Below are positions 11,487 through 43,584 of a stretch of DNA of 64,000 nt, in pieces. Each line of letters starts with the position of its first letter. Within the stretch, counting starts at the first letter, position 1. A program made the position numbers and the translations under genes. The DNA comes from an uncultured bacterium. Lineage in GTDB: Bacteria; Zhuqueibacterota; QNDG01; DSAB01. The notes beneath the pieces are model-generated. The model did no database searches. It was given only the letters and a program-made list of their open reading frames with translations, and was not told the origin of the DNA. The stretch is taken from NCBI GenBank assembly GCA_964651045.1, contig CAZYVD010000001.1:87144-151143 (forward strand). The letters are read 5' to 3'.

Positions 11487-11499
11487 CTTCCTCTATCAT

Positions 11500-21775: not shown

Positions 21776-22420
21776 TCATTCCCTGATCACAACCTTACCA
21801 CCAACAAACTCGACCCTTCCCTCTGCAAAGAGTTGAATTGCCTGCGAATAGAGCTCATGTTCAACCCTTAAAACTCTGGCCGCAAGTGTCTCTGGGGTAT
21901 CTCCTTCCTTAACAGCTACACACCTCTGAGCAACTATAGGCCCATGATCATATATCTCATCAACTATATGGACTGTTACGCCTGTGACCTTGCATCCCAT
22001 ATCGAGAACAGCCTGATGAACATGTTTCCCATACATTCCTCTTCCACCAAATGCAGGAAGAAGTGCAGGATGAATGTTCACGATTCTGTTTCTATACCGG
22101 CTGATCACCTCGGCTGGAACCTTTTTCATATATCCTGCAAGTGCAATAAAATCGACTCTGTGTGCCTCCAGCACAGAAAGGATTGCCTCTACAAAACAAT
22201 CTCTAGTTTTAAAATCCTTTTTGGAAATTATAACAAAATCAATTCCATTCCTCTTTGCAATCCTCAACGCACCCGCCTCTTGATTGTTCGTAATTAACAG
22301 TTTAACATCTGCACTTAGGGACCCTCTCTTAATGTTCTTAACAATTGCCTCAAAGTTTGATCCCCTCCCGGATGCAAAAACTCCCAACCTGAGCCTCTTC
22401 AATTTAGTACCCCCTTTCAT
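21776..22420 (-). CDS. purN: phosphoribosylglycinamide formyltransferase
   Basis: 214 aa formyl-transferase fold (GSNFEAI, HPALLPAFGG). Confidence 0.85.
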   Translation of the reverse strand: MKGGTKLKRLRLGVFASGRGSNFEAIVKNIKRGSLSADVKLLITNNQEAGALRIAKRNGIDFVIISKKDFKTRDCFVEAILSVLEAHRVDFIALAGYMKKVPAEVISRYRNRIVNIHPALLPAFGGRGMYGKHVHQAVLDMGCKVTGVTVHIVDEIYDHGPIVAQRCVAVKEGDTPETLAARVLRVEHELYSQAIQLFAEGRVEFVGGKVVIRE

Positions 22421-23721
22421 TCTACAGCCTCACTTAGAAGATCATATTCGGAACTTGCAGTTATCTTTACATTTACTATCCCGCCAATCTTTGCCTTCCC
22501 CTTTATCCATACTCTTTGATCCACCTCAGGAGCATCTCCCTGAGTTCTTCCAAAAAACAATTTCTCGTTCTCATCATATCCATCTACTATTACTGGAAGA
22601 CTCTTAGACTCAAGAGATCTATTTATCTCGGCAGATATCTCCCTCTGGGTATTCATGATGATATGATAACGCTCTTCAGCAACATTTCTTGGAACCGCAG
22701 GCCTCATACGATAAGCTGCTGTTCCTTCCTCTGGAGAATAAATAAATGCCCCCATACGTTCAAAACGAATATGTTTGACAAAATCTACAAGTTCCTGAAA
22801 CATCGTATCTGTTTCACCGGGAAAACCAACAATAAAGGTTGTCCTTATAACAATATTTGGAATCCTATTCCTGAGTTTAGATATTAGAAGCTCAATAGAT
22901 TCTTTTCTGCTTTTTCTCCCCATTGATCTTAATATAGAATCAGAAATGTGTTGAAAGGGAATGTCCAGGTACTTACATATCTTATCTTCATGGGATATAA
23001 GATCAATGAGTCTATCGTTTACACTATCAGGAAATGCATACATTATTCGAATCCAGCGGAGATCGCTGATCGAAACAAGCCTCTCCAGCAGACAGATCAG
23101 ATCGGTTCCGTTTCTTTGATCTGAGCCGTATGCCGTTGTATCCTGTGCTATTAGAATAAGCTCCTTTACACCTCTATCTACAAGGCTTTGTGCCTCATCT
23201 ATTACACTATTAATTGAGCGACTTCTGTATGGTCCTTTAATCATTGGAATAGCACAAAAACTGCAGCCATGATTACAACCATCTGCAATTTTTAGATATG
23301 CAGTATGGGGTAAGGTCGAAAGTATGCTGCGGTTTAGCTTCTTTTCATTCCAGGAGTATGAAGGGCCTAATATAAAAGAGCCTATCTCATTAAAAGACTC
23401 AACACCAAAGTATGCATCGACTTCTGGTATTTCCTGCTCAAGCCTTTCCTTATATCGCTGTGAAAGACAGCCGCAAACAACTATCTGTCTATCTCTTCCA
23501 TCCTTTTTAAGTTTGACTGCCTTAAGAATTGTATCTATTGATTCCTTTTTTGCTGCCTCTATAAATCCACATGTATTTATAATAATGGTATCTGCCTCTT
23601 TTTCATTGCCGACAAGAATCACTCCTCCCCTTACCAATTCACTTGCAATTACCTCTGAATCCACCTGATTTTTCGGACAGCCGAGTGTAATAATAGAGAT
23701 TTTTTTGTTAGATTTGATCAA
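22417..23721 (-). CDS. rimO: ribosomal protein S12 methylthiotransferase RimO (radical SAM MTTase)
   Basis: MTTase N-domain, radical-SAM CxxxCxxC (CNHGCSFC) and C-terminal TRAM. ORF-track start at 23787 reads through repeat A (encoding GGLGG from the CCCCCCAAGCCCCCC hairpin). A TTG at 23719-23721 giving LIKSNKKISIITLGCPKNQ is the more plausible start. Confidence 0.8.
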   Translation of the reverse strand: MIKSNKKISIITLGCPKNQVDSEVIASELVRGGVILVGNEKEADTIIINTCGFIEAAKKESIDTILKAVKLKKDGRDRQIVVCGCLSQRYKERLEQEIPEVDAYFGVESFNEIGSFILGPSYSWNEKKLNRSILSTLPHTAYLKIADGCNHGCSFCAIPMIKGPYRSRSINSVIDEAQSLVDRGVKELILIAQDTTAYGSDQRNGTDLICLLERLVSISDLRWIRIMYAFPDSVNDRLIDLISHEDKICKYLDIPFQHISDSILRSMGRKSRKESIELLISKLRNRIPNIVIRTTFIVGFPGETDTMFQELVDFVKHIRFERMGAFIYSPEEGTAAYRMRPAVPRNVAEERYHIIMNTQREISAEINRSLESKSLPVIVDGYDENEKLFFGRTQGDAPEVDQRVWIKGKAKIGGIVNVKITASSEYDLLSEAVE

Positions 23722-23725
23722 ATTA

Positions 23726-23985
23726 AATCCCCCCAAGCCCCCCACTTTTTCAAAGGAGGGGACTTGGTGACCGTTTGATAATAGCAATAACCTCTCTCTT
23801 ACTCCTTACTCCTTATTCCCTACTTCCAACTTTTAAGTTCGAAGTTCGAAGTTCGAACTTCGGACTTTCAACTTTCAACCCCCTCATCCCTTTCCCCAAT
23901 ATCCCCCTTTTTCAAAAGGGGGATTATAGTGGGACTTCCTGCCTGCACCCTGTACCCAATTCCACTACAATCCATAAATAAATTG
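23726..23985. repeat. repeat element copy A (hairpin-bearing, CT-rich heptamer and TTCGAA microsatellite core)
   Basis: Direct nucleotide comparison with copies B and C. Contains CCCCCCAAGCCCCCC..GGAGGGGACTTGG hairpin, tandem TACTCCT and GTTCGAA heptamers, CCCCCTTTTTTCAAAAGGGGG palindrome and a conserved GGGACTTCCTGCCTGCACCCTGTACCC tail. Confidence 0.8.
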
Positions 23986-24016
23986 CGTTCCACTATTCTA
24001 AGAAAAAAGCTTTCAA

Positions 24017-24424
24017 TCAACTTATGTCCGGTTCAGAAACCATTTTTTGCATTGTTCTTTCTGCTTCCTCAACGAACTTTCTTGCTCTTTTGATTTGTGT
24101 CTCGGCTTCTTCTTTTGTAATCACTACAAAATCACCGTAATCAGCATCCTCCCTGATATCCTTAGCCTTTGGTAGAAACTTACTAATTTCTTTTGGGAAA
24201 AGCTCCATTCTAGTAATATATTGATTAAATAATGCAATTACACCAGAGTGTTTGCTGGAATCCATCTCCTTTAATGCTAGAAGAGCTCTTGCTGAAGTAA
24301 ACATAGCATAATAACTTCTGTTAACCGAAAGTCCATAATGTTTCTGAGCAAGATTGTCTTCCGCTTCAGTTAGAATTTCTTTTGCCTTCTTTATTCTGTA
24401 CATTGCTAATTTCAGCCTACCCAT
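24017..24424 (-). CDS. HEPN domain protein (HEPN/MNT toxin-antitoxin-like module)
   Basis: 135 aa matching the HEPN PF05168-type pattern NRSYYAMF..ARALLALKE...KHSGVIALF...REDADYG. Overlaps the MNT gene by 8 nt. Confidence 0.8.
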   Translation of the reverse strand: MGRLKLAMYRIKKAKEILTEAEDNLAQKHYGLSVNRSYYAMFTSARALLALKEMDSSKHSGVIALFNQYITRMELFPKEISKFLPKAKDIREDADYGDFVVITKEEAETQIKRARKFVEEAERTMQKMVSEPDIS

Positions 24425-24764
24425 AAAGCAGAACTCCTTCTTTTTCTACTTGCTCGAAGAAAAACGAACCCAATCTTTTATTCTCTTTATACTCAAATAG
24501 GCTGTAAACTACGGGGGATATTGGAACATTATATTCAAAAAAATAATTTGCTGCTATATCACTTATCTTATCTCTAACATCCCCTTTTTCCTTAACCAGA
24601 ATGAATAAATCTACATCGGAATCTTTTTCAAAATCACCTCTTACTTTAGAACCAAATAACCGAATGGCCACAATATAATCACCCAACTTGTCCTTCAGTT
24701 CCTTTACAAAAGAATTTATCACTTTTTCTTCTGTTTTACTCAGGTATTGTAATTTTTTTATCAT
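24417..24764 (-). CDS. minimal nucleotidyltransferase (MNT) domain protein
   Basis: 115 aa with Pol-beta-type NTase motif LFGSKVRGDFEKDSDVDL. AAGGAGG Shine-Dalgarno is supplied by repeat B. Confidence 0.8.
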   Translation of the reverse strand: MIKKLQYLSKTEEKVINSFVKELKDKLGDYIVAIRLFGSKVRGDFEKDSDVDLFILVKEKGDVRDKISDIAANYFFEYNVPISPVVYSLFEYKENKRLGSFFFEQVEKEGVLLYG

Positions 24765-24912
24765 TACTCCCTCCTTTTCCCTTACTCCCTACTTTTAACT
24801 CTTCACTTCCGCTTCCGTTCTCTCCAATATCCCCCTTTCCAAAAAGAGGATTATAAGGTGATTTCCTGCCTGCTCCCTGTACCCAATTTCACCAGCAATC
24901 TATAAATTAAAT
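24765..24912. repeat. repeat element copy B (5'-truncated)
   Basis: Shares the CT-rich core, CCCCCTTTCCAAAAAGAGG palindrome and TTCCTGCCTGCTCCCTGTACCCAATTTCACC tail with copies A and C; lacks hairpin 1. Confidence 0.75.
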
Positions 24913-24927
24913 GGATATAAAAAGATT

Positions 24928-25282
24928 TCATAATCGATCGTGAATACTACTAACAACCCCTTCAATATTTTTAAGAACATCAATATTAGAAAACCTTAAA
25001 ACTTTAAGACCCAAACTACGAAGATAAAGATCCCGAACTCTATCTTTCTTCATACCTTCTTCTAAATAATGCTGGCCCCGTCTATTTCAATAACTATCTT
25101 CCTGGCAGGACAGTAAAAATCAACAATTTAATTCCCTATGGGTTTCTGTCTGTAAAACTGAACTCCCTTAAGCTGCTTTCTTCTAATCTTCGAACAGAGA
25201 AGCTTCTCAGCCTCTGTCATATTTTTCCGCAATTCTCTGGATATGGTTTTTAATCTCTTGTTATAGAGTAACAATATCGAAT
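24928..25282 (-). pseudogene. decayed DUF559 (Vsr-like endonuclease domain) gene
   Basis: Minus-strand translation gives RELRKNMTEAEKLLCSKIRRKQLKGVQFYRQKPIGN*IVDFYCPARKIVIEIDG, then a -1 frameshift before GQHYLEEGMKKDRVRDLYLRSLGLKVLRFSNIDVL. One in-frame stop where Tyr is expected, one missing G in a G-run, and no intact start (upstream stop lies in repeat C). Confidence 0.65.
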
Positions 25283-25490
25283 CCCCCCAAGCCCCCCTTT
25301 TTCAAAGGGGAGCTTAGCGACCTTTCGATAATAGCAATAACCTCTTTCTTACTTCTTACTCCTTATTTCCTACTTCGAACTTTCAACCCCCTCATCCCTT
25401 TCCCCAATATCCCCATTTTTCAAAAGGGAGATTATAGTGGGACTTCCTGCCTGCACCCTATACCCTTCACAACCCCGCAATCAATAAAAA
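25280..25490. repeat. repeat element copy C
   Basis: Near-identical to copy A over hairpin 1 and the AATAGCAATAACC spacer, the CT-rich heptamers, the CCCCATTTTTCAAAAGGGAG palindrome and the conserved tail; lacks the GTTCGAA expansion. Confidence 0.8.
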
Positions 25491-25582
25491 GATTACACCT
25501 CGGAAAGATCAACACTACCTCTTTTCTGTCAAACTTCATTCATAATTTATGATTCAAAACTCTGAATTCAAAATTGTCTATA

Positions 25583-26500
25583 TCACCCTAACATTCCCTC
25601 AACAAAAGCCTCTGCATCAAATGGGACAATATCCTCCAATCCCTCACCCAACCCTACCCATTTTACTGGAATTCCCAGTTCCTGATAGATCGATACTACT
25701 ATCCCGCCACGTGCAGTACCATCGAGCTTTGTGAGGACTATACCAGACACATCAACAGTCTCGGCAAACAATCTGGCTTGATTGAGACCATTCTGTCCTG
25801 TAGTAGCATCTATGACCAGAAGAACTTCATGAGGAGCAGTATCGCTCTTTTTCCTCAAGACCCTAAATATCTTCCCGAGCTCTTCCATTAAATTTACCTT
25901 TGTATGAAGTCTGCCCGCAGTGTCTATTATCAATATATCAACCCTACGTGCTATTGCTGCCTCTAAAGCATCAAATGCAACGGATGCAGGATCTGCTCCT
26001 GCACTCTGCCTGATTAGATCCGCACCAGCTCTCCTGCTCCATTCTTCTAGTTGTTCAGCAGAAGCTGCGCGAAATGTATCTGCACATGCAAGAAGTACCT
26101 TCTTATCTCTTTTCTTATACATATAAGCAAGTTTGCCAATTGTAGTGGTCTTTCCAGTACCATTAACCCCAACAATCAGGACTACATACGGCCTGTGTGT
26201 ACTATTGAGCTGCTCCCACTCAGATCGCACTCTTTCAATAAGAGTCTCTTTTAAAATTTCTCTCACTCCCTCCTCTGTAAATTTTCTGCCCTGCCTCATT
26301 CTCTGTCTGATCTGTTCTATTATATCCAGCGTAGTTTTTACACCTATGTCGCTTTCGATGAGTATCCTTTCCAGCTCATCAAGCATATCATCACTTATTC
26401 TTTTTCTACCTGCAAATAGACCGGCAATTTTCCCCAACACCCCTCCTCTTGTCCTTGCCAGTCCCTTCTCCCATAGTCTATCAGTATTCATCACTTTCAC
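25583..26500 (-). CDS. ftsY: signal recognition particle receptor FtsY
   Basis: 305 aa SRP54-type GTPase (GVNGTGKTTTIGKLA, DTAGR). Confidence 0.9.
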   Translation of the reverse strand: MKVMNTDRLWEKGLARTRGGVLGKIAGLFAGRKRISDDMLDELERILIESDIGVKTTLDIIEQIRQRMRQGRKFTEEGVREILKETLIERVRSEWEQLNSTHRPYVVLIVGVNGTGKTTTIGKLAYMYKKRDKKVLLACADTFRAASAEQLEEWSRRAGADLIRQSAGADPASVAFDALEAAIARRVDILIIDTAGRLHTKVNLMEELGKIFRVLRKKSDTAPHEVLLVIDATTGQNGLNQARLFAETVDVSGIVLTKLDGTARGGIVVSIYQELGIPVKWVGLGEGLEDIVPFDAEAFVEGMLG

Positions 26501-27063
26501 AAACTCTTCTCTTTTTCTTTTTCAATTCTTTTTAAAAATTCTCTTAAATATATGATACTCGAATATACAGTCAACATTAGTGCCGCATAGAGTGCAATCC
26601 ATGCAAGGGGTTGAACATTAAATATAAACAGTATTACTACAACGCCATTTGCAAAGGCAGAATTTTTTCCAGCCCTGTTGGACTCCATCACAATCTTCCT
26701 CTTTCTTATTACTAAGAGACCCCCAAGCAGTATTAATAGTTCACGCAAAAGAACCACTAAAAAATACCACAGGGGAAAATAGTAATCGGGACTTAATAGC
26801 AAGAAGACCAGAACTATCAATACATCAAGTTTATCAACAATTGGATCCAGAATGCGGCCAAAATCTGACTTCTGGTTAAACCGCCTTGCAATCCAACCAT
26901 CAAGAAAATCGCTTGCAACACCTGCCAGCATCCATACAAAGGCCAGAAGTTTTTGGCCACTGCTTAGATTTATTATGATAGGAAACACCACGCCAAAGCG
27001 AAATAGAGTCAATAAATTTGGTAAAGTCCACACCTTCATCTTTTCTTTCACCAATTTCCTCAT
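26497..27063 (-). CDS. CDP-alcohol phosphatidyltransferase family protein
   Basis: 188 aa polytopic protein with a perfect CDP-OH-P motif DGWIARRFNQKSDFGRILDPIVD (D-G-x2-A-R-x8-G-x3-D-x3-D). Confidence 0.8.
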   Translation of the reverse strand: MRKLVKEKMKVWTLPNLLTLFRFGVVFPIIINLSSGQKLLAFVWMLAGVASDFLDGWIARRFNQKSDFGRILDPIVDKLDVLIVLVFLLLSPDYYFPLWYFLVVLLRELLILLGGLLVIRKRKIVMESNRAGKNSAFANGVVVILFIFNVQPLAWIALYAALMLTVYSSIIYLREFLKRIEKEKEKSL

Positions 27064-28232
27064 ATGAATACCTTTGCCGCTTCTATCATTAATTTAGGAT
27101 GTCTCAACAGTGCTACTTTGAATATGCGCAGTGCACTCCTCTTCTCGGGTGGTATCTGGAGAAGTGTATCTGCTATCTTGTTAAGATCACTGTCCGAAAA
27201 TCTATCGATGACTCTTTTTATCTTATATGATATCTCATTATTCTTTCCTTCTGCCTTGTACCACTCCCTTTGATAAATCGAAAGCCTCTTTCGTGAAACA
27301 TCACCCTCTTTTACTGCTTCTGCGGCCACTTTGCCTGCAATTCGGCCTGCTATCATAGCATTTACTATTCCTCCTCCAGACATCGGGTTTGCCTGATGTG
27401 CAGCGTCTCCAACGAGCATCAGCCCATCAGAAACAATCTCTTTCATTGTTGGGATGAGAGGAACTCCTCCAGTAATAATATTGAGGATCGAATATTTCTT
27501 ATATTTTCGTCTAATAAATTCTTCAAGATACGAGATTGGTCTTTTTTTCTTGGGATATTTTCCAGACATGCCTAATCCAACATTAGCACTATTCTGACCC
27601 TTTGGGAATACCCATAAATAACCTTCTGGTGCTACATCCTTACCAAAATAAAACTCAACTACTTCAGGATCTACTTCAATACCAGTCAGCCTCATCTGAA
27701 CACAGGAAGCCATGCATTCAACTGAAGTCCTGGTATTCAATCCTGCCCAACGCCCAACTCTCGACTCAACACCATCGGCTCCAATTACAACCGAACATTT
27801 AATCTTATATTCTTTCCCTAAATGGAGCACTCTTACACCATGTATAGATCTATCATCAATTAAAAGTCCACATACATAAGCTTTTGTAGCTATCTCTCCG
27901 CCGCATTCTGAGACCATAGATGCCAGATCTTTTTCAAAAAGCTCGCGATGAAGTATGAATCCAGAATCATCAGGATATGATACAACCTCTGTCCCATTCG
28001 GTGCAACCAGTTTTGCACCTCTTATACGCACGGCAATCCAGTGCTCCCTGAGATCGATAACACTTTTTATGCCATCCTCAGAAACTCCCTCTGCACAGCG
28101 TACTGGAATCCCAATTTCGCGATCCTTTTCTAAAACCAGAACAGATGCACCTCTCTCTGCTGCATGCTTTGCTGCCCACAATCCCCCCGGGCCCCCGCCA
28201 ACAACTATTATGTCATATCGCTCTTTCATTAC
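27060..28232 (-). CDS. geranylgeranyl reductase family FAD-dependent oxidoreductase
   Basis: FAD dinucleotide-binding motif DIIVVGGGPGG at the N-terminus; ~390 aa GGR-family length and pattern. Likely start is MKERYD at 28232 (ATGA overlap with the upstream ferredoxin stop) rather than the ORF-track start at 28271. Confidence 0.75.
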   Translation of the reverse strand, partial: VMKERYDIIVVGGGPGGLWAAKHAAERGASVLVLEKDREIGIPVRCAEGVSEDGIKSVIDLREHWIAVRIRGAKLVAPNGTEVVSYPDDSGFILHRELFEKDLASMVSECGGEIATKAYVCGLLIDDRSIHGVRVLHLGKEYKIKCSVVIGADGVESRVGRWAGLNTRTSVECMASCVQMRLTGIEVDPEVVEFYFGKDVAPEGYLWVFPKGQNSANVGLGMSGKYPKKKRPISYLEEFIRRKYKKYSILNIITGGVPLIPTMKEIVSDGLMLVGDAAHQANPMSGGGIVNAMIAGRIAGKVAAEAVKEGDVSRKRLSIYQREWYKAEGKNNEISYKIKRVIDRFSDSDLNKIADTLLQIPPEKRSALRIFKVALLRHPKLMIEAAKVFI

Positions 28233-28405
28233 AAAATCTCCACAGCTCCTATTGGACAGACGTCTCTGCATTCACCGCATAGGATACATTTTTTGGTGTC
28301 TATAGCTATATCCGACTCTCTTAATTCAATTGCATCTTCGCTGCACACCGCAACACATGCACCACAAAAGTCACACCTGTTAATATCTATTATAACCTTG
28401 CTCAT
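28229..28405 (-). CDS. 2x[4Fe-4S] ferredoxin
   Basis: 58 aa, below the ORF-track cut-off. Minus-strand translation: MSKVIIDINRCDFCGACVAVCSEDAIELRESDIAIDTKKCILCGECRDVCPIGAVEIL, with two CxxCxxCxxxCP clusters. Its stop overlaps the start of the reductase. Confidence 0.75.
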   Translation of the reverse strand: MSKVIIDINRCDFCGACVAVCSEDAIELRESDIAIDTKKCILCGECRDVCPIGAVEIL

Positions 28406-28418
28406 ATTGTAAACCTCT

Positions 28419-29342
28419 TCAAGAAACTCTTAGACTTGGATATTCAAAATTAAAACGTTTTTTGTAGTACCATCTTGAAAAGAAAAAGATAAAAACGAGC
28501 AGAACCAGATAGTACGGTGCAACAACACAAATACTTAATGCTAATGCAGCTATTGACAATTTTGTACATAGCATAATTTTTGAAACTGAAGTGTCAAAAA
28601 CACTCATTATAAAAAATGGAAAGGCTATCAGTGCAGGAATAAAGAGTATCCACTCTCGCATGAAAAACGATGTTACAACCACAGCCGCCTCAAATATAAG
28701 AGCCCATAAGGCTGTACTTTTAACCCCAAATCGAACAGGAAATGTTATCTTTCCAGCCTTTTTATCTCCTTTTATATCCGGCACCGTTGTATTGAGATAA
28801 ACCGATACTCCTGCAAAAGTATATGGAAGCACCAAAAGAGGCAGTCCCTTCCCTCCTCCTGCACTCCAACCGATTAAATAGATCAACATGCCTCCTGTTC
28901 CATTGGTTATTAAGCCCATTATTGGCTTATTCTTCCACATAAAAGGGGAATAATTATAGAGTAGACCCGACAGAATGAAAAGCAGTATAAATAAAATTCC
29001 AATTATTGTACTCATCAAAAATCCCCAAACTATTGCAATCGATGCAAAGATAGCTGCCTCAAGATATGCAGACCTCTTGGAGACAATCCCATTAGCAACA
29101 AGAAATAATTTTCCATTTAACCGATCTGTCTCGACATCCTGAATCTGGTTTATAATAAATATGCTGCCCATTAAAATAGTAAGTTGAAATATTACTGCTA
29201 ACGGTATGTTTAAAAATGAATTACTGCTGTTGGAAAAATGTGTGCCTCCAAACCACCCCGCAAGAAAAAAAGTCCATATTGGATAAAATAGTATCGGCCT
29301 GGTGAGAAAAAAATAATCAAGAATTTCAATTCCTCTTTTCAA
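28419..29342 (-). CDS. UbiA-family prenyltransferase (digeranylgeranylglyceryl-phosphate synthase-like)
   Basis: 307 aa polytopic protein with UbiA Asp-rich motifs NQIQDVETD and DIKGDKKAG. Confidence 0.75.
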   Translation of the reverse strand: MKRGIEILDYFFLTRPILFYPIWTFFLAGWFGGTHFSNSSNSFLNIPLAVIFQLTILMGSIFIINQIQDVETDRLNGKLFLVANGIVSKRSAYLEAAIFASIAIVWGFLMSTIIGILFILLFILSGLLYNYSPFMWKNKPIMGLITNGTGGMLIYLIGWSAGGGKGLPLLVLPYTFAGVSVYLNTTVPDIKGDKKAGKITFPVRFGVKSTALWALIFEAAVVVTSFFMREWILFIPALIAFPFFIMSVFDTSVSKIMLCTKLSIAALALSICVVAPYYLVLLVFIFFFSRWYYKKRFNFEYPSLRVS

Positions 29343-30757
29343 ACGATCTCCTGCACGATTTCTTCATTCTGAATCTTTGTCGACATATTCTTTATCGGCA
29401 CAGGATAGTTGCCGTCAAAACAGGCTGTACAATAACCCTCTCCCTTTTTAGGAACAGCACTTCTGAGCCCATCGAGCGAGAGATACCCAAGGCTGTCCAC
29501 CTGAAGATGCTCCCTGATTCTCTCAACAGACATCGAAGATGCTATCAACTCCTTCTTTGTCGGGAAATCCATTCCATAAAAACATGGATATCGAATCGGT
29601 GGAGAGCTGACTCTTATATGTACCTCCTCTGCACCAGCCTTTCTGATGAGTTGAGTCAGAATCTTTAATGTTGTGCCCCTCACTATAGAGTCCTCAACCA
29701 CGACTACCTTCTTCCCTTTTAAAACTCCTCCAACTGTATTGAATTTTAGCTTAACATTAAAATGCCTTATTGTCTGCTGAGGTTGAATGAATGTGCGGCC
29801 GATATAGTGATTACGGATTAGTCCAAGTTCATAAGGAATCTTTGCAGTTTGTGCATAACCCAATGCAGCGGTATTGCTCGAGTCTGGAACAGAAATTACT
29901 ATGTCTGCATCTGCAGGATGCTCCTCTGCCAGCCTCTTTCCCAATTTTCTTCTTGTCTTATCAACATACTCTCCAAAAATTCTACTGTCTGGACGGGAAA
30001 AGTAAATGAATTCAAAAATACAATGTGCCTTCTGGTTTGAGCTCTTAATTCTTTCAGATTCTATACCTCTCTTATCTATAACGATCAGCTCACCAGGCTC
30101 TATGTCCCGTATATAATGGGCACCGAGCAGATCCATTGCACACGTCTCTGAAACTACTACATATGACCCTTCACCCAATGCTCCAAGAGACAGAGGACGA
30201 AAACCATAGGGATCTCTTGCTGCAATAATCTGATCTCTTGTAAGGATGACAAGAGAATAAGCGCCCTTAACCTTCATCAACGCATCTTTTATTCGATCTA
30301 CAATACTCTTCTTCTTTGATCGTGCAATAAGGTGAACAATGATTTCACTATCAGTTGCACTCTGAAAAATTGAACCCTCGCTCTGCAGCCTGTCTTTCAG
30401 CTCTCTCGAATTAACAAGATTACCATTGTGTCCCAATGCAAGAGGCCCTTCTTTTGAATTCACAAGTATTGGCTGTACATTATTTTCGCTGTCAGATCCT
30501 GTTGTTGAATATCTATTATGGCCTATTGCTATGTTTCCCTTTAATTTGCCGATTGTCTCTGCAGAAGAAAACACATCATTGACCAGTCCCCTTCCCAGAT
30601 GAACATAGACCTTACTCCCGTCTGATGAAACTATACCGGCACCCTCCTGACCCCGATGCTGCAAAGCATAAAGACCCAGATATGCCATCTCAGATGCCTC
30701 TGGATGGCCCCATACACCTATTATACCACATGACTCTTTTATCTTCTCTGACTTCAT
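29339..30757 (-). CDS. purF: amidophosphoribosyltransferase
   Basis: 472 aa with N-terminal Ntn Cys (SCGIIGVWG), PRTase domain and C-terminal Fe-S cysteine motifs. Confidence 0.9.
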   Translation of the reverse strand: MKSEKIKESCGIIGVWGHPEASEMAYLGLYALQHRGQEGAGIVSSDGSKVYVHLGRGLVNDVFSSAETIGKLKGNIAIGHNRYSTTGSDSENNVQPILVNSKEGPLALGHNGNLVNSRELKDRLQSEGSIFQSATDSEIIVHLIARSKKKSIVDRIKDALMKVKGAYSLVILTRDQIIAARDPYGFRPLSLGALGEGSYVVVSETCAMDLLGAHYIRDIEPGELIVIDKRGIESERIKSSNQKAHCIFEFIYFSRPDSRIFGEYVDKTRRKLGKRLAEEHPADADIVISVPDSSNTAALGYAQTAKIPYELGLIRNHYIGRTFIQPQQTIRHFNVKLKFNTVGGVLKGKKVVVVEDSIVRGTTLKILTQLIRKAGAEEVHIRVSSPPIRYPCFYGMDFPTKKELIASSMSVERIREHLQVDSLGYLSLDGLRSAVPKKGEGYCTACFDGNYPVPIKNMSTKIQNEEIVQEIV

Positions 30758-30769
30758 TTTAATTCCGCC

Positions 30770-31867
30770 TTATTCTATGATTACTATTGGGTTAGAATAT
30801 ATCCATCCTCTCCTTTTTCTAAATATCTCGACCCTGTAGACACCAGCTTTGCCACTTTCAAAAACAAGCTCTCTGCCTCTTAGTTTTTTAATAATCTTTC
30901 CGTTCAAAAGAAGCGATATATCTCCGGAGAGAGGTGAATGGATTTTAAAGCGCAACCTTTTCTCCCTCCTTATCCTGCTTCCCATCTCATATGTTCCCCT
31001 TTCTCCCTCTGCTGAAAATCGAAATCCTCTTGCATCTCCACACCTATAATTTGAAACAAAACATCTTCCATCTCTCAATGCTCCAAACACCTCTGCCTCT
31101 GCCTCTCTAAATGAGAGTCTCTTCTCACCACTTACCAAATGATTCTTAATCAGCAAATGGGTGCGGATAGACTTAAATTGTACTTTATATGGATAAATTT
31201 CCCATGGGATGATCTTAAATATCTTAATACGATAGGCATGTACATCAATTCCTCCTATGCCCACAACACGTCTTTTACGGTTTAAATCGTCCCATCTTTC
31301 AAGTGTCTCCCATACTGGAAATTTTATTGACCGAAGCGGATGAATTATTCTCCATGCAATGTTTCTACGTGTTATTCCTTCCATCCATTCAGACATCTGA
31401 TTCCATATCTCTATCCCATCAAATCCCTCTGCCTCCCATGCTGTCCATGGATATGGCGGGTATGCGTCAGAAAAATTCCGCTTCTCTGAAGGATGAGCAA
31501 TAATTCCAAAACCTCCGGCTCTCTTTACACTCCTCACATAATCTGCCGCATTCTTGTTAGTATCTACTTCTCTGTCGATCTGAAATGCAAGATAATGATT
31601 TCTCTCATCACTGTCGTTTATCTCGCACCCTATTATTACAAGCACATTTCCATACCACCCCTCCAGACCATGACGCTTAGGTTCTAATGTGTTATGATCC
31701 GTAAACATCAGGAAATCGAGGTCTGTTGTGTTTGCAATAGCAGCAATCTCAGAAATTGAGAGCGAACCATCCGAATAATTAGAGTGAAGATGAACGGCCC
31801 CAACAATCTCACTATAATCTGTTTTTCTCTCCTCTACCACCATCCCAGTAATAGTGCTCCCAAACAA
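30770..31867 (-). CDS. PHP-domain metal-dependent phosphoesterase with uncharacterised C-terminal domain
   Basis: 365 aa with N-terminal PHP motifs (HLHSNYSDG ... FTDHN). Confidence 0.65.
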   Translation of the reverse strand: MFGSTITGMVVEERKTDYSEIVGAVHLHSNYSDGSLSISEIAAIANTTDLDFLMFTDHNTLEPKRHGLEGWYGNVLVIIGCEINDSDERNHYLAFQIDREVDTNKNAADYVRSVKRAGGFGIIAHPSEKRNFSDAYPPYPWTAWEAEGFDGIEIWNQMSEWMEGITRRNIAWRIIHPLRSIKFPVWETLERWDDLNRKRRVVGIGGIDVHAYRIKIFKIIPWEIYPYKVQFKSIRTHLLIKNHLVSGEKRLSFREAEAEVFGALRDGRCFVSNYRCGDARGFRFSAEGERGTYEMGSRIRREKRLRFKIHSPLSGDISLLLNGKIIKKLRGRELVFESGKAGVYRVEIFRKRRGWIYSNPIVIIE

Positions 31868-32220
31868 ATTCCAATCAAATCTGCAATTATGTCTTTCCAG
31901 CTAAATGTACCACTATGTCTCTTTCTATCGACCGATTCCTTTGCAATGCCTAAGAAGAGGACCGTTCCTGCACCCATAAATATATTATCAGGACTTTTTT
32001 GTTCAAAACGATTCTTAATTATCCAACTCATTGCACCTGTCAAAATAAAACTTCCAATAAGATGCCTGGCCTTATCCCTCCCAAACCAGAAATCGGATTC
32101 CTGTTTTCTATTAAGAGTCAGAGATACCCTCAAATCCGAATGTTCATCTGTATCTGCTTCCACAACGACTGGAAACGCTGCAAATATTGTTAAAAAAGTT
32201 GCGATTATGAGTTTTCTCAT
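31834..32220 (-). CDS. hypothetical lipoprotein/membrane protein (DUF2279-like)
   Basis: 128 aa with signal peptide and conserved DKARH ... GIAKE pattern. Confidence 0.4.
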   Translation of the reverse strand: MRKLIIATFLTIFAAFPVVVEADTDEHSDLRVSLTLNRKQESDFWFGRDKARHLIGSFILTGAMSWIIKNRFEQKSPDNIFMGAGTVLFLGIAKESVDRKRHSGTFSWKDIIADLIGICLGALLLGWW

Positions 32221-32778
32221 CTAAAGTCCAAGATCTTTATCAATTTCTTGCATTGCGGTAAGAGCAAGTTCAATAAAATCGTGCAGCGAAATCCCAAACT
32301 CTTCACACGTTTTGATCTGATCTCTGTTAGCACCAGCCGCAAATCTTTTTTCTCTGAAACGCCTCTCAACAAAATCGGAATCCACATTTTTCAACTTCTT
32401 TGTTGGATGCATTAGAGCAGCAGCAACTATCAAGCCTGTTATTGGATCCACGGCATACAGGGCCTTGTCAAGCAAACTCTTACGTGGAAAGTGACCGGGA
32501 TGACTCTTAATCGCATAAATAGCCTCTTCACAGATATCTTTATCTTCAAGCATTTCTGCACTCATCAATCCATGTCTCTGTGGATTATCGAATGTCTGAT
32601 CATAATCCAGGTCGTGAAGAAGTCCTGTGAGCCCCCATAGGTCTTCATCCTGATCAAATCTTCTTGCAAGAGCACGCATAACAGCCTCTGTTGCAAGCAT
32701 GTGCTTCCTTAGATTTTTATTTGAGACATTCTCTTCAATAAGCTTTAAAGCATCTTCTCTGTTCATTTCATGCTCCAA
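32221..32778 (-). CDS. HD-domain phosphohydrolase
   Basis: 185 aa with HD motif (LLHDLDYD). Confidence 0.7.
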   Translation of the reverse strand: MEHEMNREDALKLIEENVSNKNLRKHMLATEAVMRALARRFDQDEDLWGLTGLLHDLDYDQTFDNPQRHGLMSAEMLEDKDICEEAIYAIKSHPGHFPRKSLLDKALYAVDPITGLIVAAALMHPTKKLKNVDSDFVERRFREKRFAAGANRDQIKTCEEFGISLHDFIELALTAMQEIDKDLGL

Positions 32779-32787
32779 TATAGTGTT

Positions 32788-33294
32788 TTAAAATTTCCAG
32801 CTAAAACAAAACATAACTCCTCTACCCTCTAAAACTCTACCCTCAAAAGATAGGTCCTCACTCACATCAAAGTCCGACAGATATGCATCTACAAATGCAT
32901 CGAGTATGTTAAGAAGATAGACGGCGCCAAACCACCATAAATACAGACTCTTGTTATTGTAATAAAACTCCCGTTCATATTCGGTCTTACTTGCCACAAA
33001 TTTCTGGTTAAAATAGATCGCATTTGCCATTAATCCTGCCTCCACACCAAACACAAATAGTGCCTTGAGTTTCTTGCCGTTGTACCACTGCCCCCATCCT
33101 GGCAGGAGAGCCGATCTTATCATTGCCGTTTTTGTTGATTTTACCTCATGATTGACCTTCTCGCTTGAAGAAACAACCCGGGTTGAATCTATATCCTGCC
33201 TCGCATAAAGAGGTAAGTTACATATTATCAGAAAAAACCATAAAAGGGGAATCAGCAATTCTTCCCCTTTGAATAATTTAAATGAACATTTCAT
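32788..33294 (-). CDS. DUF5683-like signal-peptide protein
   Basis: 168 aa with signal peptide and conserved LLPGWGQWYNGK segment typical of the FCB-group DUF5683 family. Confidence 0.5.
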   Translation of the reverse strand: MKCSFKLFKGEELLIPLLWFFLIICNLPLYARQDIDSTRVVSSSEKVNHEVKSTKTAMIRSALLPGWGQWYNGKKLKALFVFGVEAGLMANAIYFNQKFVASKTEYEREFYYNNKSLYLWWFGAVYLLNILDAFVDAYLSDFDVSEDLSFEGRVLEGRGVMFCFSWKF

Positions 33295-33298
33295 CTTA

Positions 33299-33688
33299 CT
33301 ATGTTATGTAAGCAATACATTCAATCTCTACCATGGCCCCCTTGGGAAGCCGGCTAACCTCTACTGCTGATCTAGCAGGGGGATTTTCAGTAAAATATTT
33401 TTTATAGACCTCATTCATCTTTGTAAAATCATTCATGTCTTTTAAAAAAACAGTTGTTTTTACTACATGGGACATATCTGTACCTGCAGCCTCCAGTACC
33501 GACTTAAGATTCTCAAGTGCCTGTTTAGTCTGGACTTCTATATCACCTTCTGCCATCTTCCCTGTATTTGGATCTAATGGTATCTGGCCTGCAGTAAAGA
33601 CTATTTTTGCAGCATCAATCACGACTCCCTGGCTGTATGGCCCCACCGCAGCAGGCGCTTTATCCGTCTTAATTATTCTCTTTGACAT
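33299..33688 (-). CDS. ridA: RidA/YjgF family reactive-intermediate deaminase
   Basis: [20 protein letters not shown]... The ORF-track start at 33724 is probably 12 codons too long. Confidence 0.8.
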
Positions 33689-33720
33689 GCTACCTCCAAT
33701 CTTCTTATTTGAAAAATGAT

Positions 33721-33903
33721 TCAATCACTTTCATCATCGATATCCTCAAACCGAGCATCTTCCACTTCTGAATCCTTAAGGTCGAGAGGAGGAACCTTCT
33801 GCCTTCCCTCCACCTTTTGGCTGCTCTGATAATTAACAATCACTCCTCGAACTATCCTGTATACAATATAGAATAAAAGAACTGTAATGAAAAATCTAAG
33901 CAT
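33721..33903 (-). CDS. small membrane protein (DUF4834-like)
   Basis: 60 aa with one TM helix and an acidic C-terminus. Confidence 0.4.
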
Positions 33904-33917
33904 GAGTTCTATCTCGT

Positions 33918-34556
33918 CTATTTTCTCGGTATATAGTATTTCATTCCTGTCGGTGGATTTAACACCTGTTTAATCAAATCGTCCAGATCTTCCTCATTAT
34001 CCACAAAATCGATCTCTGAAGTGTTTATTACTAAAAGCGGAGTCTGTCTGTAGTGAAAGAAAAAATCGTTATATGCTTCATTCAACCTTCTGATATAATC
34101 GATCGAGATGTTCCTTTCATATTCTTTATTTCTCTTTTTAATATTGGCAAAAAGTTTTTCTGCTGTGGACTGAAGATATATGACAAGATCTGGCTTGGGA
34201 ATCTCCTTTTCCAGGAATCTGGTTACCTTTTCATATAAAATATAATCCCTCTCTTCCAAATTTATTTGTGCAAAAATCTTATCCTTTGCAAATATATAAT
34301 CTGCAATTAGATATGGATAGAATAAATCCTTCTGCGGCAGACTCAACAGTTGACGATATCTGCTGATTAAAAAGAAAAGCTGTGTTTGAAATGCATACCT
34401 TTGAGGATTCCTGTAAAAGTCTTTTAAATAGGGATTGGATTCTGAATCTTCCAGAAGCAACATCCCCTCGAGTCTCTCTGCCATAAGCTTGGCAAGACTG
34501 GTCTTCCCTACTCCGATTACACCCTCAATTGCTATGTAATAAATACTCTTCAACAA
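33918..34556 (-). CDS. deoxynucleoside kinase
   Basis: 212 aa with P-loop IEGVIGVGKTSL; dNK/dCK/dGK family. Confidence 0.8.
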   Translation of the reverse strand: MLKSIYYIAIEGVIGVGKTSLAKLMAERLEGMLLLEDSESNPYLKDFYRNPQRYAFQTQLFFLISRYRQLLSLPQKDLFYPYLIADYIFAKDKIFAQINLEERDYILYEKVTRFLEKEIPKPDLVIYLQSTAEKLFANIKKRNKEYERNISIDYIRRLNEAYNDFFFHYRQTPLLVINTSEIDFVDNEEDLDDLIKQVLNPPTGMKYYIPRK

Positions 34557-34568
34557 AAATCCCTTAAA

Positions 34569-35096
34569 TCATGCAGTGAAAATTTCTACTCTTCCACCAT
34601 CCCTGCATTCCTTGAGAGCATTCTGAACCGATTTCCCATATCCTGGTATTATAAAATCTCGTGCTATCTCATTAAGTGGAACCAATATGAACCTGCGCTG
34701 CCTCAGGCATGGATGTGGAATCTTTAATTCATCATTATCTATCATATATCTATCATATATCAGAATATCAATATCGATCCTTCTTGGCCCCCATCTCTTC
34801 TCCTCTTTTTTCACACGACCAATATTTTTTTCTATTGCCTGACATTTTGTAAGCAGCTTCTCTGGTGTAAGTCTAGTGGCGACCTCGATCACCTGGTTTA
34901 GAAACGGCCTCTGAGACTTTCTTCCCCACGGCTCTGTTTCATAAATCGATGAGATTTTCAAAATCCTGTTCTCTTCTATGTCGTTAATATGGCCTAAAGC
35001 TTCTTTTAGATAGCTCTCCCTGTCTCCAACATTCGAACCAAGACTCAAAAAGGCTATCAAGATATTTTCACTCCGGAAGTTAACAGAATTGATCAA
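34569..35096 (-). CDS. folK: 2-amino-4-hydroxy-6-hydroxymethyldihydropteridine pyrophosphokinase
   Basis: 175 aa HPPK fold (LSLGSNVGDRESYLKEAL; RWGPRRIDIDIL). Confidence 0.85.
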   Translation of the reverse strand: MINSVNFRSENILIAFLSLGSNVGDRESYLKEALGHINDIEENRILKISSIYETEPWGRKSQRPFLNQVIEVATRLTPEKLLTKCQAIEKNIGRVKKEEKRWGPRRIDIDILIYDRYMIDNDELKIPHPCLRQRRFILVPLNEIARDFIIPGYGKSVQNALKECRDGGRVEIFTA

Positions 35097-35154
35097 TGTT
35101 TAGATAGTGAATATATCAAATATCCCTTAAATTGTCAACTAAAAACATCACAGC

Positions 35155-36048
35155 CTATTTACAGGGATTTTTCAAAAGATGAAGACGAACTCTTATTACC
35201 GATACATCTCTAAGAATCTCTCCATACTGATCGTTATAATCCTTAAATACTATTCTATTTTCACTCTTATTTATTATCTTAAGATAAGGATCAAGATTCT
35301 TTCCCAGATTAGTGAAGATAGTTCTGGCACTATTTTCATCATGATATTGTATATTTATCAAAGTCGTCCTGTGTGATTGTGAATCGATGTAATCGGCAGC
35401 AACTCCAAATACTCCACCACCTAGTCTTAATATGTTCCCTTCACCGAATGTATACACCGACTCTGTAGAATACTGACCAGCAATAATAATTTCTGTCCCC
35501 TTTACACGGCCTTTTTGTGGTAGCCTTCTTAACAGATCTACCTTCTTCCCCTCTGGTATTGTTAAAATTATTCTGTTTATTAAACTTATCACAACTCTCT
35601 TTATATCTTCTGATCCACTGGTGTTTGTGACAACAATAAAATATCTGTTCTTTACGGCAATGCACTGAAAAGGAGTTGCAGAATTGCGTGTTAAGATTTC
35701 CGGGTATGGGGTCTCTTCTCCCTTTTTAATAAGATATATTCCCAGAGCAGCTACCGTACTCTTCATTCGGTAGATTTCTAAAGTTATCTCCTCTGTGCCA
35801 TTCCCATACAGCTGAACATTGAGCTCTTCAAATCCAAATTCATTGAAAAGTTCGGCGCCACCATCTATATAATTAAATAGATCATGCCCCTTATATATTC
35901 TGAGTCTTCCTACACGCCTCCAGCCAGGACTAAAATTATTCCCCGGAATGTCTACTGCTACGGAATCTGACTTGGTATGGACTGCAAATATTAATGAAGG
36001 TAAAATAAAGATGAGTCCGATAAATGAGAATAAGTATAGAATCTTCAT
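35155..36048 (-). CDS. hypothetical secreted protein
   Basis: 297 aa with signal peptide; no recognisable domain. Confidence 0.4.
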   Translation of the reverse strand: MKILYLFSFIGLIFILPSLIFAVHTKSDSVAVDIPGNNFSPGWRRVGRLRIYKGHDLFNYIDGGAELFNEFGFEELNVQLYGNGTEEITLEIYRMKSTVAALGIYLIKKGEETPYPEILTRNSATPFQCIAVKNRYFIVVTNTSGSEDIKRVVISLINRIILTIPEGKKVDLLRRLPQKGRVKGTEIIIAGQYSTESVYTFGEGNILRLGGGVFGVAADYIDSQSHRTTLINIQYHDENSARTIFTNLGKNLDPYLKIINKSENRIVFKDYNDQYGEILRDVSVIRVRLHLLKNPCK

Positions 36049-36070
36049 ATGGTTTTATTATTCCATCACT

Positions 36071-37288
36071 TCACACAATTATACGGTTTATTCGCTCCAG
36101 ATGGCCAATACCGAGCCCTAACCTCTCCCCATAACGGAGATATTCAGCATATATCGGATGTTCATTAACTCTTATCTTCATCTCCTTCCTCTTTTTAACT
36201 ATTAAATCGTGACAGAGTCTGTCGAGTGCAATAGGATCTGTAGCAAAGAATAATCTGTTAAAATTATATTGGAACTTTACATTTGCTGCTGGGCCACCTT
36301 CATACTGGCCAATAAGGCCATCTACAATATTTATCATTAATTTATCACGGATTACAGGAAACGCCATTACCTCAGTACAGACATCAAAGAACAGAGGACG
36401 ATGGAGCCTGTTTGTATTGCAAATCGATCCATATCCGATATTTTTTGTAGCCATGGAGATACCATTTCCCGTATTTTTAAATACTGCAACATTAATAATC
36501 TTAGTTAACTTCTGCGTTAGAAGTTTTCCAAAATATGAATACTTGCCGTTAAATACATGCTGGTTGAGATACGGAAGATCTTTCGGCCCCTCTACATCTG
36601 CCCAGTAGTAAACATTCTTATCAAAATTGGACTCACTCACATGGTGACCATTTTTATCAAGCCATCTGCTGTTATCTATATCTCTATTATTTCTTGCTGC
36701 AGCGGCTGCATTCTCATCCATTGTTTGCAGGCCTTCAATCTTAATTCCCGGGTATCTTTCTGGTGTAAATCCAGCATCCTTCAGCATATAATCAAAACGA
36801 TCCCATATTACAATGCTGCTCCTCTTGACCCCATTTCTTAAAAGCCAGTCGATTATACCACTAACTACCTCTGTATGTGTCGATATCAATCCTCCACCAA
36901 CCGGATTAACCTTGATGCCTATTACATCACTTTTGCTAAAAAACATTTTAAAACTTCTATTTAGATCCTTACCTGTAAGATTTGTGATTCCCTTCTCTAT
37001 CATCCTGTTAACAATATCGGGATCCGGCCTTCGCCCCTTTAAAACTCCAGAATCGTGTACCTCAACTACTTTGCCTGGAAATGGTCCAGGAATAGAATAC
37101 CGCATGCGAGGTATCGATAAAACATCTTCTATATTGGTCTTTATCCTCTGCCTCTCCTTTTTCTCACCAGACCAGATCGGCGGTGTGCCAAGAATTATTC
37201 CAGCACCCACACCACATCCAATCTTTAAAAACTTTCGCCTGCAGAGTTCTGTCCCGTCCTTCCTAGAAACATATCCATCTATTCCCAT
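36071..37288 (-). CDS. twin-arginine-signal protein, DUF362-like
   Basis: 405 aa with Tat motif RRKFLKIGCGVGAG at the N-terminus. Confidence 0.45.
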   Translation of the reverse strand: MGIDGYVSRKDGTELCRRKFLKIGCGVGAGIILGTPPIWSGEKKERQRIKTNIEDVLSIPRMRYSIPGPFPGKVVEVHDSGVLKGRRPDPDIVNRMIEKGITNLTGKDLNRSFKMFFSKSDVIGIKVNPVGGGLISTHTEVVSGIIDWLLRNGVKRSSIVIWDRFDYMLKDAGFTPERYPGIKIEGLQTMDENAAAAARNNRDIDNSRWLDKNGHHVSESNFDKNVYYWADVEGPKDLPYLNQHVFNGKYSYFGKLLTQKLTKIINVAVFKNTGNGISMATKNIGYGSICNTNRLHRPLFFDVCTEVMAFPVIRDKLMINIVDGLIGQYEGGPAANVKFQYNFNRLFFATDPIALDRLCHDLIVKKRKEMKIRVNEHPIYAEYLRYGERLGLGIGHLERINRIIV

Positions 37289-41670: not shown

Positions 41671-41679
41671 GAAAACCTC

Positions 41680-42171
41680 TCAATTTAAATTTTTCTCTTT
41701 TAATTTCTTTCTTGTATATTCCAACAGTCCACCCGACTCGATTATCTTCATAACCTCTTTTGGAAATGGAGGAAATTTAAAAACTTTCTCAGCGATCTTG
41801 ATTATTCCTTTCTCAGCTACTATCTCAACAAAATCTCCTTCTTTATAACTCTCTACAGCTCTAGGACACTCTATTAAAAGCAAACCCTGATTTATCGAAG
41901 ATCTGTAAAATATTCTTGCAAAGCTCTTAGCAACTACTGCAGCAATCCCGACAGCCTTAAGACCTACTACTGGTTGTTCACGCGAACTTCCACACCCAAA
42001 ATTTTTACCTGCAATTATTATATCTCCACTTCTTACATTCAAAGCAAATTGCGGATCCAGATCTTCAAGAAGATGCGGCTTGATCTCATCTGGTGTCGAA
42101 CATGTATATGTATATTTTCCAGGAAAAAGCATGTCTGTATTTATGTCATCACCATATTTCCATACTCTCAT
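41680..42171 (-). CDS. aconitase-family small subunit (LeuD-type)
   Basis: MRVWKYGDDINTDMLFPGKY... swivel domain. Start overlaps the large-subunit stop; the ORF-track start at 42267 is inside the upstream gene. Confidence 0.75.
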   Translation of the reverse strand: MRVWKYGDDINTDMLFPGKYTYTCSTPDEIKPHLLEDLDPQFALNVRSGDIIIAGKNFGCGSSREQPVVGLKAVGIAAVVAKSFARIFYRSSINQGLLLIECPRAVESYKEGDFVEIVAEKGIIKIAEKVFKFPPFPKEVMKIIESGGLLEYTRKKLKEKNLN

Positions 42172-43436: not shown

Positions 43437-43509
43437 AATTCTGCTCCAGAGTTATCGATGATTTTTGTCTCTAAATATAATAAAAATATGTTAATTTCAA
43501 AATACGATT

Positions 43510-43562
43510 TTTTTTGAATTTTAACCTAAAATTAAGGCCCGCTCTCTAACTCAAGCGGGCCT
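43510..43562 (-). terminator. rho-independent terminator after the fused aconitase-family gene
   Basis: GGCCCGCT / AGCGGGCC stem followed by a T-rich tract on the minus strand. Confidence 0.55.
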
Positions 43563-43584
43563 TTAATCGATCTTTTCTTGATAT

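Follow-up and report, generated by a model that had tools for sequence, protein, structure and literature searches.

A UbiA-family prenyltransferase linked to a ferredoxin and an archaeal-type geranylgeranyl reductase in bacteria of the FCB group

Bacteria of the FCB (Fibrobacteres-Chlorobi-Bacteroidetes) group carry archaeal-like genes for isoprenoid lipids, geranylgeranyl reductase (GGR) included, and these genes are central to the debate on the 'lipid divide'. Earlier work centred on homologues of GGGPS and DGGGPS, with activity shown for Cloacimonetes only. Here we analyse a stretch of 64,000 nucleotides from an uncultured bacterium of the Zhuqueibacterota (assembly GCA_964651045.1, contig CAZYVD010000001.1, positions 87,144 to 151,143 of the forward strand; below, the window), in which a gene for a UbiA-superfamily membrane prenyltransferase is followed by genes for a ferredoxin and a GGR flavoprotein. 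The locus adds a distinct prenyltransferase clade that stands in physical linkage with an archaeal-type reductase and its ferredoxin; in a literature search the operon was found nowhere described. We tentatively favour the view that the three proteins form one functional module making a saturated isoprenoid-chain membrane lipid.

A close described system is that of Candidatus Cloacimonetes (Villanueva et al. 2021, PMC7852524). The set resembles that of the window in its FCB host, in combining a UbiA-superfamily enzyme with Euryarchaeota-like GGRs, and in having bacterial CdsA/PgsA for the head groups and no CarS. The validated DGGGPS of Cloacimonetes is co-localised with GGGPS and is described there as close to the DGGGPS of TACK archaea, whereas the UbiA protein of the window, compared with it by description, belongs to a very divergent separate clade, is linked to ferredoxin and GGR genes and has no GGGPS nearby. 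The 'DGGGPS homologues' that the same paper lists for KSB1, Calditrichaeota and Zixibacteria may or may not equal the clade described here. For FCB phyla that carry the UbiA family, two papers report GGGPS and 'DGGGPS' homologues as well as Euryarchaeota-like GGRs (PMC6431249; PMC7852524).

As regards the reductase, Methanosarcina acetivorans encodes a small 2x[4Fe-4S] ferredoxin (MA1485) beside its GGR (MA1484), as in the window (Isobe 2014, as cited in PMC7852524). The GGR of Thermoplasma acidophilum (3OZ2) belongs to the same reductase family (238.7 bits), with the Cys and YxWxFP motifs common to both. Unlike the archaeal GGRs, the reductase of the window has a bacterial host, misses the equivalog cutoff (246 against 780 bits) and has a substrate and a ferredoxin dependence that are predicted. 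As regards the prenyltransferase, the best match in both sequence and structure is AfUbiA of Archaeoglobus fulgidus (PDB 4TQ3-4TQ6; 83-86 bits, Foldseek E 1e-7, 22% identity), which has a second motif of the same type, xxxxD-x3-D-KKAG without an extra upstream Asp, but has neither the additional C-terminal helix nor the YYKKRFxxxYP tail that mark the window family. MjDGGGPS (6M31) shares with the window protein the UbiA fold, motifs 1 and 2 and two of the three motif-3 aspartates; the window protein differs from it in the low identity (19%), in scores of 36-44 bits on DGGGPS hidden Markov models (HMMs), in the Thr at Mj D180 and in the additional C-terminal helix and tail, which belong to its own family. 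ChlG and ChlP likewise pair a prenyltransferase with a GGR-family reductase, and ChlG is the third-best reference match (56-59 bits); however, the hosts of the window family are not phototrophs, and the reductase is nearer to the archaeal lipid GGRs than to ChlP/BchP.

Linkage of the prenyltransferase, ferredoxin and reductase genes

The locus is encoded on the minus strand and comprises, in the direction of transcription, purF (amidophosphoribosyltransferase; 29339-30757, 472 aa; TIGR01134 528 bits, cutoff 350), the UbiA gene (28419-29342, 307 aa, TTG start; PF01040 81 bits), the 2x[4Fe-4S] ferredoxin gene (28229-28405, 58 aa; matches to Fer4, Fer4_10 and Fer4_7), the GGR gene (27060-28229, 389 aa; PF22578 GGR_cat, TIGR02032), a PgsA-like CDP-alcohol phosphatidyltransferase gene (26497-27063, 188 aa; PF01066 115.8 bits) and ftsY, encoding the signal recognition particle receptor (25583-26500, 305 aa; TIGR00064 358 bits, cutoff 260.7). 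All six open reading frames of the preliminary description, which was made by inspection of the sequence, are present and their domain calls were confirmed with Pfam and NCBIfam. The organism is known from metagenome contigs alone (JGI 3300021468 and a 197-kb contig in ENA ERZ27248458), and an independent JGI call on an identical contig reproduced all six products with the same lengths.

A pattern scan with one genome per species found the UbiA family encoded in 159 genomes; the 80 loci retrieved belong to KSB1, Calditrichota, Marinimicrobia (Neomarinimicrobiota), Fidelibacterota, Latescibacterota, Zixibacteria, Zhuqueibacter and unclassified metagenome-assembled genomes (MAGs). Within the genome collection the organism is closest to unclassified MAGs, whose UbiA proteins are at most 55% identical to its own, and the family was not recovered from Cloacimonadota among the genomes found. 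The gene order purF-UbiA-ferredoxin-GGR-(PgsA-like)-FtsY-RimO recurs in KSB1, Calditrichota, Marinimicrobia, Fidelibacterota and relatives; in 61 of 70 loci purF is the immediate upstream neighbour of UbiA. Downstream of UbiA, tblastn with the window proteins at the 60 loci that extend at least 3.5 kb in this direction detected GGR and, directly upstream of it, the ferredoxin in 50 each, a PgsA-like gene in 42 and FtsY in 54; GGR and PgsA occur together in 34 clusters, GGR without PgsA in 16, and neither of them in 2.

Clustering of the open reading frames showed that the trio is embedded in a longer conserved block, namely folK, dNK, RidA, DUF5683, HD, (PHP), purF, UbiA, ferredoxin, GGR, PgsA, FtsY, RimO, GWxTD, purN, purH and mreB. 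The position of the trio inside a core housekeeping block of several candidate phyla suggests a constitutive, ancient function rather than a recent transfer. The depth of synteny is itself unusual, as an order of about 15 housekeeping genes, from folK to mreBCD, PBP2, RodA and Lgt (window 21776-37288; loci L006-L085), is kept across several candidate phyla.

In Fibrobacterota, including the cultured Chitinispirillum alkaliphilum, the arrangement is UbiA(-UbiA)-(TPR-like protein of about 335 aa)-ferredoxin-GGR, with one or two tandem UbiA paralogues and neither purF nor ftsY (variants of Fibrobacterota and Chitinispirillaceae at L004 9021-13319, L086 9024-13292 and further loci). Such clusters were found in four contexts, the flanks of which are wholly different from the block of the window. 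As UbiA, ferredoxin and GGR are kept together in these unrelated surroundings, their link appears to be functional and not merely inherited gene order, and on comparative grounds we consider the Fibrobacterota clusters the strongest evidence that the three act jointly. The tandem UbiA paralogues could perform two prenyl transfers, one after the other. Their partner of about 335 aa has a lipoprotein-like N-terminus and faint TPR matches.

Affinities of the reductase and of the prenyltransferase

The reductase passes the cutoffs of TIGR02032 (218.1 bits, cutoff 158.8) and PF22578 (97.5, cutoff 27), and scores 246 bits on NF041160, the model of the Thermoplasmatales digeranylgeranylglycerophospholipid reductase, 127 on the BchP-ChlP model TIGR02023 and 68 on MenJ; the equivalog cutoffs of 780 (NF041160) and 580 bits are not attained. 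Residues 3-381 align to the Thermoplasma enzyme 3OZ2, the Sulfolobus GGR entries of the PDB being matched at 87-90 bits, and the motifs PVRCAEG with the catalytic Cys, GYLWVFPKG and MLVGDAA are intact with respect to 3OZ2. Homologues of this protein are labelled digeranylgeranylglycerophospholipid reductase by JGI. Judged by these scores and motifs the reductase is clearly of the archaeal lipid-reductase type and not of the ChlP/BchP or MenJ type, as the preliminary description had proposed. Directly upstream lies the ferredoxin with two CxxCxxCxxxC(P/S) motifs, the protein that had been taken for the reductase's own, and by analogy with Methanosarcina it is the presumed electron donor. As the arrangement matches the Methanosarcina pair, and as ferredoxin genes adjoin lipid GGRs in archaeal loci (PMC10821996), the pair is best explained, by homology, as a system that saturates prenyl chains with electrons from the ferredoxin.

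The UbiA protein is a genuine member of its superfamily (PF01040), and yet it reaches no NCBIfam equivalog (best scores 36-45 bits against cutoffs of 205-353), and neither did any of 35 family members scanned singly. Its best match to a MenA model is local (residues 178-247, 44.6 bits, cutoff 264). A family profile was scored against validated reference sequences, so that the affinity of the clade is ranked by bit scores and not by phylogeny. AfUbiA came first, followed by MjDGGGPS (62-64 bits), ChlG, Rv3806c (41 bits, local), EcMenA (25.6) and EcUbiA (13.2). The protein therefore does not group with the MenA/UbiA quinone enzymes, in keeping with what had been supposed at the outset. A profile search run exhaustively over 1.84 billion representatives retrieved 407 clusters at E<=1e-30, rising to 3303 at 1e-10 and to 14993 at 1e-3, and the best 150 matches all lie inside this family. 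By sequence similarity the protein is placed in a discrete clade of the FCB group, which comprises about 400 clusters.

DGGGPS enzymes are defined by a motif 1 of the form N-x3-D-x3-D, a motif 2 of the form Y...K and a motif 3 of three acidic residues (PMC9385802). The window protein contains N65-Q66-x2-D69-x3-D73, Y129...K137 and D189-x3-D193. In A1, an alignment of 35 family sequences (a narrower alignment, A2, was used for locating related loci), N65, D69, D73, Y129 and K137 are invariant or nearly so and align to Mj motifs 1 and 2, while D189 and D193 occupy the positions of Mj D183 and D187. Of the DGGGPS-like Asp motifs claimed in the preliminary description, motif 1 and this last pair are kept, as is the Y...K motif 2, whereas one of the three acids of motif 3 is a Thr. 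The family also has features of its own, an N-terminal signature LDYxFxLRPxLFxPVW and, past the end of MjDGGGPS, an extra predicted helix (277-297) with a conserved tail WYYKKRFxxxYP, in which Y292, R296, Y301 and P302 are invariant (residues 277-307; window 28419-28500). The AF2 model (pLDDT 92.8) predicts the UbiA fold with several transmembrane helices and a cytoplasmic cap, and given ten helices the basic tail would sit on the cytoplasmic, active-site side. Foldseek with this model ranked the PDB structures in the same order as the profile, AfUbiA before MjDGGGPS before ChlG, the DGGGPS structures 6M31 and 7BPU being matched at E about 5e-6 and TM 0.64-0.69.

Possible products of the trio

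The trio probably makes a saturated isoprenoid lipid; an archaeal-style ether lipid as its product is not demonstrated. That the acceptor is a glycerolipid, i.e. that the prenyltransferase forms an ether in the manner of DGGGPS, is possible and is our tentative choice, arrived at, like the ether-lipid product, solely by elimination. A quinone role is disfavoured by the weak affinity to MenA and UbiA, and also by C. alkaliphilum, which carries a paralogous cluster and has no genes for aerobic or anaerobic respiration (PMC4814513). A role in chlorophyll or tocopherol synthesis is disfavoured as the hosts are non-phototrophic anaerobes. A glycerolipid is held to be consistent with the reports of GGGPS, 'DGGGPS' and GGR in these phyla, with the archaeal-lipid type of the reductase and with the tolerance of bacterial head-group enzymes: CDP-archaeol is accepted by bacterial PgsA, and bacterial CdsA and PgsA can process archaeol-type intermediates (PMC7852524).

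On this basis we propose that the prenyltransferase would bind a prenyl diphosphate, most likely the C20 geranylgeranyl diphosphate (GGPP), via Mg2+ held by N65/D69/D73 and D189/D193, and would transfer the chain to a membrane-bound acceptor, most likely the hydroxyl of a glycerol-phosphate lipid. The latter could be geranylgeranylglyceryl phosphate, supplied by a GGGPS whose gene lies elsewhere, or else a glycerolipid of the lyso type. The FAD-containing reductase would then hydrogenate the double bonds of the chain with electrons from the co-encoded ferredoxin, and the PgsA-type enzyme, probably an ordinary phosphatidylglycerolphosphate (PGP) synthase, could add a phosphatidylglycerol head group to the CDP-activated product.

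Several observations weigh against a glycerolipid ether as the product. The UbiA protein, which the preliminary description regarded as resembling DGGGP synthase, is no recognisable DGGGPS, as it scores 36.8 bits on PRK12882 (cutoff 296), 34.6 on PRK12883 (353) and 43.6 on PRK12884 (269), whereas even a partial MjDGGGPS obtains 258 bits on PRK12882 and 233 on PRK12884. E. coli UbiA, with 81 bits, outscores it on the DGGGPS-type model PRK12884, and hence such cross-matches mean superfamily-level similarity only. The equivalent of Mj D180 is Thr186, a residue that is nearly invariant in the family, as in AfUbiA, and DGGGPS membership is not demonstrated. In the window and its flanks (about 79 kb), Pfam annotation of the size-appropriate open reading frames and the flanks found no GGGPS, glycerol-1-phosphate dehydrogenase (G1PDH) or GGPP synthase; the absence of the former two from the window had been stated before and holds by Pfam annotation, and a PcrB phmmer scan of the window was also empty. 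None of the three was found in 1.45 Mb of related loci either, where the same scan detected no PcrB, although the query is weak for group II GGGPS (the validated Bacillus PcrB scores 31.8 bits on the group II GGGPS of F. johnsoniae). In 8 of the 60 genomes UbiA and PgsA occur in the cluster without ferredoxin and GGR. Finally, the lipids described for Chitinispirillum are ornithine and phosphoglycerol lipids, fatty acids and two unidentified polar lipids, with no isoprenoid ethers (PMC4814513).

The alternative that survives best, although we consider it unlikely, is that UbiA attaches the prenyl chain to a head group that is not a lipid (an aromatic, quinol, chromanol or tetrapyrrole-like molecule) and that the reductase acts like ChlP or a menaquinone prenyl reductase, giving a phytyl-type side chain, so that the product is a cofactor and not a bulk lipid. 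AfUbiA, the top structural match, has no known acceptor, which adds to the case against a glycerolipid, and of the 35 family members 34-35 are matched by models of ChlG and homogentisate phytyltransferase, at a level similar to that of the DGGGPS models. ChlG/ChlP and MenA/MenJ are known pairs of a prenyltransferase and a reductase, and in A. fulgidus a paralogue of GGR, AF_0648, is a prenyl reductase specific for menaquinone (PMC10821996). Nevertheless, the family profile barely recognises the E. coli quinone enzymes, the reductase is nearer to the lipid GGR than to BchP/ChlP or MenJ, the carrier phyla are non-phototrophic, the cultured carrier of a paralogous cluster is devoid of respiration genes, and the conserved neighbourhood contains no quinone, tocopherol or chlorophyll genes.

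Quite improbable, in our judgement, is a UbiA protein that serves as a polyprenyl-phosphate phosphoribosyltransferase of the Rv3806c/DPPR-synthase type, using phosphoribosyl pyrophosphate (PRPP), a substrate common to purF, in building a precursor of envelope glycans on a polyprenyl carrier that is partly saturated. DPPR-synthase models match 29 of the 35 members, Rv3806c structures are among the Foldseek and HMM matches, purF lies immediately upstream in the majority of genomes (see above), and archaeal GGR paralogues have been implicated in polyprenol saturation (PMC10821996). However, Rv3806c is matched over a local stretch (profile positions 47-132, 40.8 bits) and less strongly than AfUbiA, DGGGPS and ChlG, and purF belongs to a housekeeping block with purN and purH and is absent from the Fibrobacterota clusters. 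That the trio has no joint function, UbiA and the ferredoxin-GGR pair serving separate pathways in an inherited housekeeping order of compact genomes, would fit the conservation of the whole folK...mreB block, the 4-nt overlaps found all over the window and the Zixibacteria loci with UbiA but no GGR nearby, and yet it is very improbable in view of the four Fibrobacterota-type contexts with entirely different flanks.

The favoured view, of a joint module for a saturated isoprenoid lipid, thus retains from the archaeal-type ether-lipid module of the preliminary description the reductase, the ferredoxin, their linkage to UbiA and the separation of UbiA from the quinone enzymes, whereas the DGGGPS identity, the CDP-alcohol transferase, the gene overlaps and purF/ftsY are not retained. 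A further-reaching idea, which we regard as doubtful, is that the clade is an unrecognised, vertically inherited ether-lipid synthase of the FCB group, distinct from canonical DGGGPS, that its products are constitutive saturated isoprenoid glycerolipids of KSB1, Calditrichota, Marinimicrobia and relatives, and that the tandem paralogues of Fibrobacterota might make both transfers without a PcrB-type GGGPS. The locus offers candidates for expression, UbiA alone or together with ferredoxin and GGR, and with C. alkaliphilum there is a cultured organism that can be examined for the product of the related cluster.

Gene junctions, flanking genes and other features of the window

The junctions of the six genes were read from the sequence. 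UbiA overlaps purF by 4 nt (TTGA) with its TTG start, which is backed by the alignment A1; the ferredoxin gene follows UbiA after a 13-nt spacer, agaggtttacaat, with no overlap; the ferredoxin and GGR genes share one nucleotide at 28229 (TAATG); and 4-nt overlaps join GGR to the CDP-alcohol transferase gene (ATGA) and the latter to ftsY (GTGA). The preliminary description had all five as ATGA-type overlaps of 4 nt, which applies to three as regards length and to one alone as regards sequence; the overlap that it placed at 28229/28232 was wrong, as the GGR gene starts at 28229. Overlaps of 4 nt join 11 of the 52 same-strand neighbour pairs of the window, and 8 of these 11 lie outside the six-gene cluster. 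As they are this frequent window-wide they prove little about a dedicated operon, and in relatives these junctions often open into gaps, e.g. 95 nt between GGR and the CDP-alcohol transferase gene in locus L001. Translational coupling through the overlaps, offered before as a sign of function, was rejected on account of their frequency and carries little weight. The co-directional array extends upstream past purF to the PHP, HD, DUF5683, RidA, dNK and folK genes with small gaps, a scan for promoters and terminators stayed at background level, and an Rfam scan of the window gave no match.

The CDP-alcohol transferase, with its signature DGx2ARx8Gx3Dx3D visible, scores 96.8 bits on the pgsA model TIGR00560, just below the cutoff of 109.1, and far less on every other model of a head-group synthase, with at most 37 bits on the archaeal ones. 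Lgt, which uses phosphatidylglycerol, is also encoded in the window, and as it needs this lipid a housekeeping PgsA is expected in the genome. The bacterial type of the enzyme, its absence from 18 of the 60 clusters and the presence of Lgt together suggest that it is probably a housekeeping PGP synthase, an optional neighbour rather than the part of an ether-lipid set for which it had been taken, though it could also serve CDP-activated isoprenoid lipids. Likewise purF and ftsY, previously counted with the module, were rejected as members, since they are housekeeping flanks within the long conserved block and are absent from the Fibrobacterota clusters. Upstream of purF lies a gene for a PHP-domain metallohydrolase of the CehA/McbA family (30770-31867, minus strand; NF038032 87 bits, cutoff 80). 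Searches with tblastn found this gene again upstream of purF-UbiA in members of the close lineage and in Marinimicrobia and Fidelibacterota. One Fibrobacterota-type contig has it directly upstream of UbiA, and its product may act as an accessory phosphoesterase.

On the other side of the cluster, about 1.8 kb are inserted between ftsY and rimO (22417-23787), which adjoin in relatives. The insertion contains a HEPN/nucleotidyltransferase pair resembling a toxin-antitoxin system (24017-24424 and 24417-24764), a DUF559 pseudogene (about 24930-25222) that contains a TAA in frame, and three copies of a repeat of about 120 nt (23838-23957, 24765-24884 and 25346-25465) with a CCCCxTTTTTCAAAAGGGG hairpin. 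One JGI contig also terminates in this region (23838-25465).

Elsewhere in the window, the minus strand encodes an ATP-citrate-lyase-like pair of 429 aa (ATP-grasp_2 and Citrate_synth_N) and 714 aa (CoA_binding, Ligase_CoA and Citrate_synt) with three adjoining aconitase-family genes (38240-45393), a set that hints at a reductive tricarboxylic acid cycle. Nearly all genes of the window (1-64000) lie on the minus strand and the GC skew is negative in 31 of 32 2-kb bins, a bias consistent with a single replichore and a strong preference of genes for the leading strand. An exopolysaccharide-type cluster (1046-12954) encodes a Wzz/GNVR tyrosine-kinase-like protein, Poly_export, a sugar epimerase, Bac_transf, glycosyltransferases, an asparagine-synthase-like protein and GNAT, and on a related contig it runs on past the window, where carrier-protein, AMP-ligase, methyltransferase and deacetylase genes follow.

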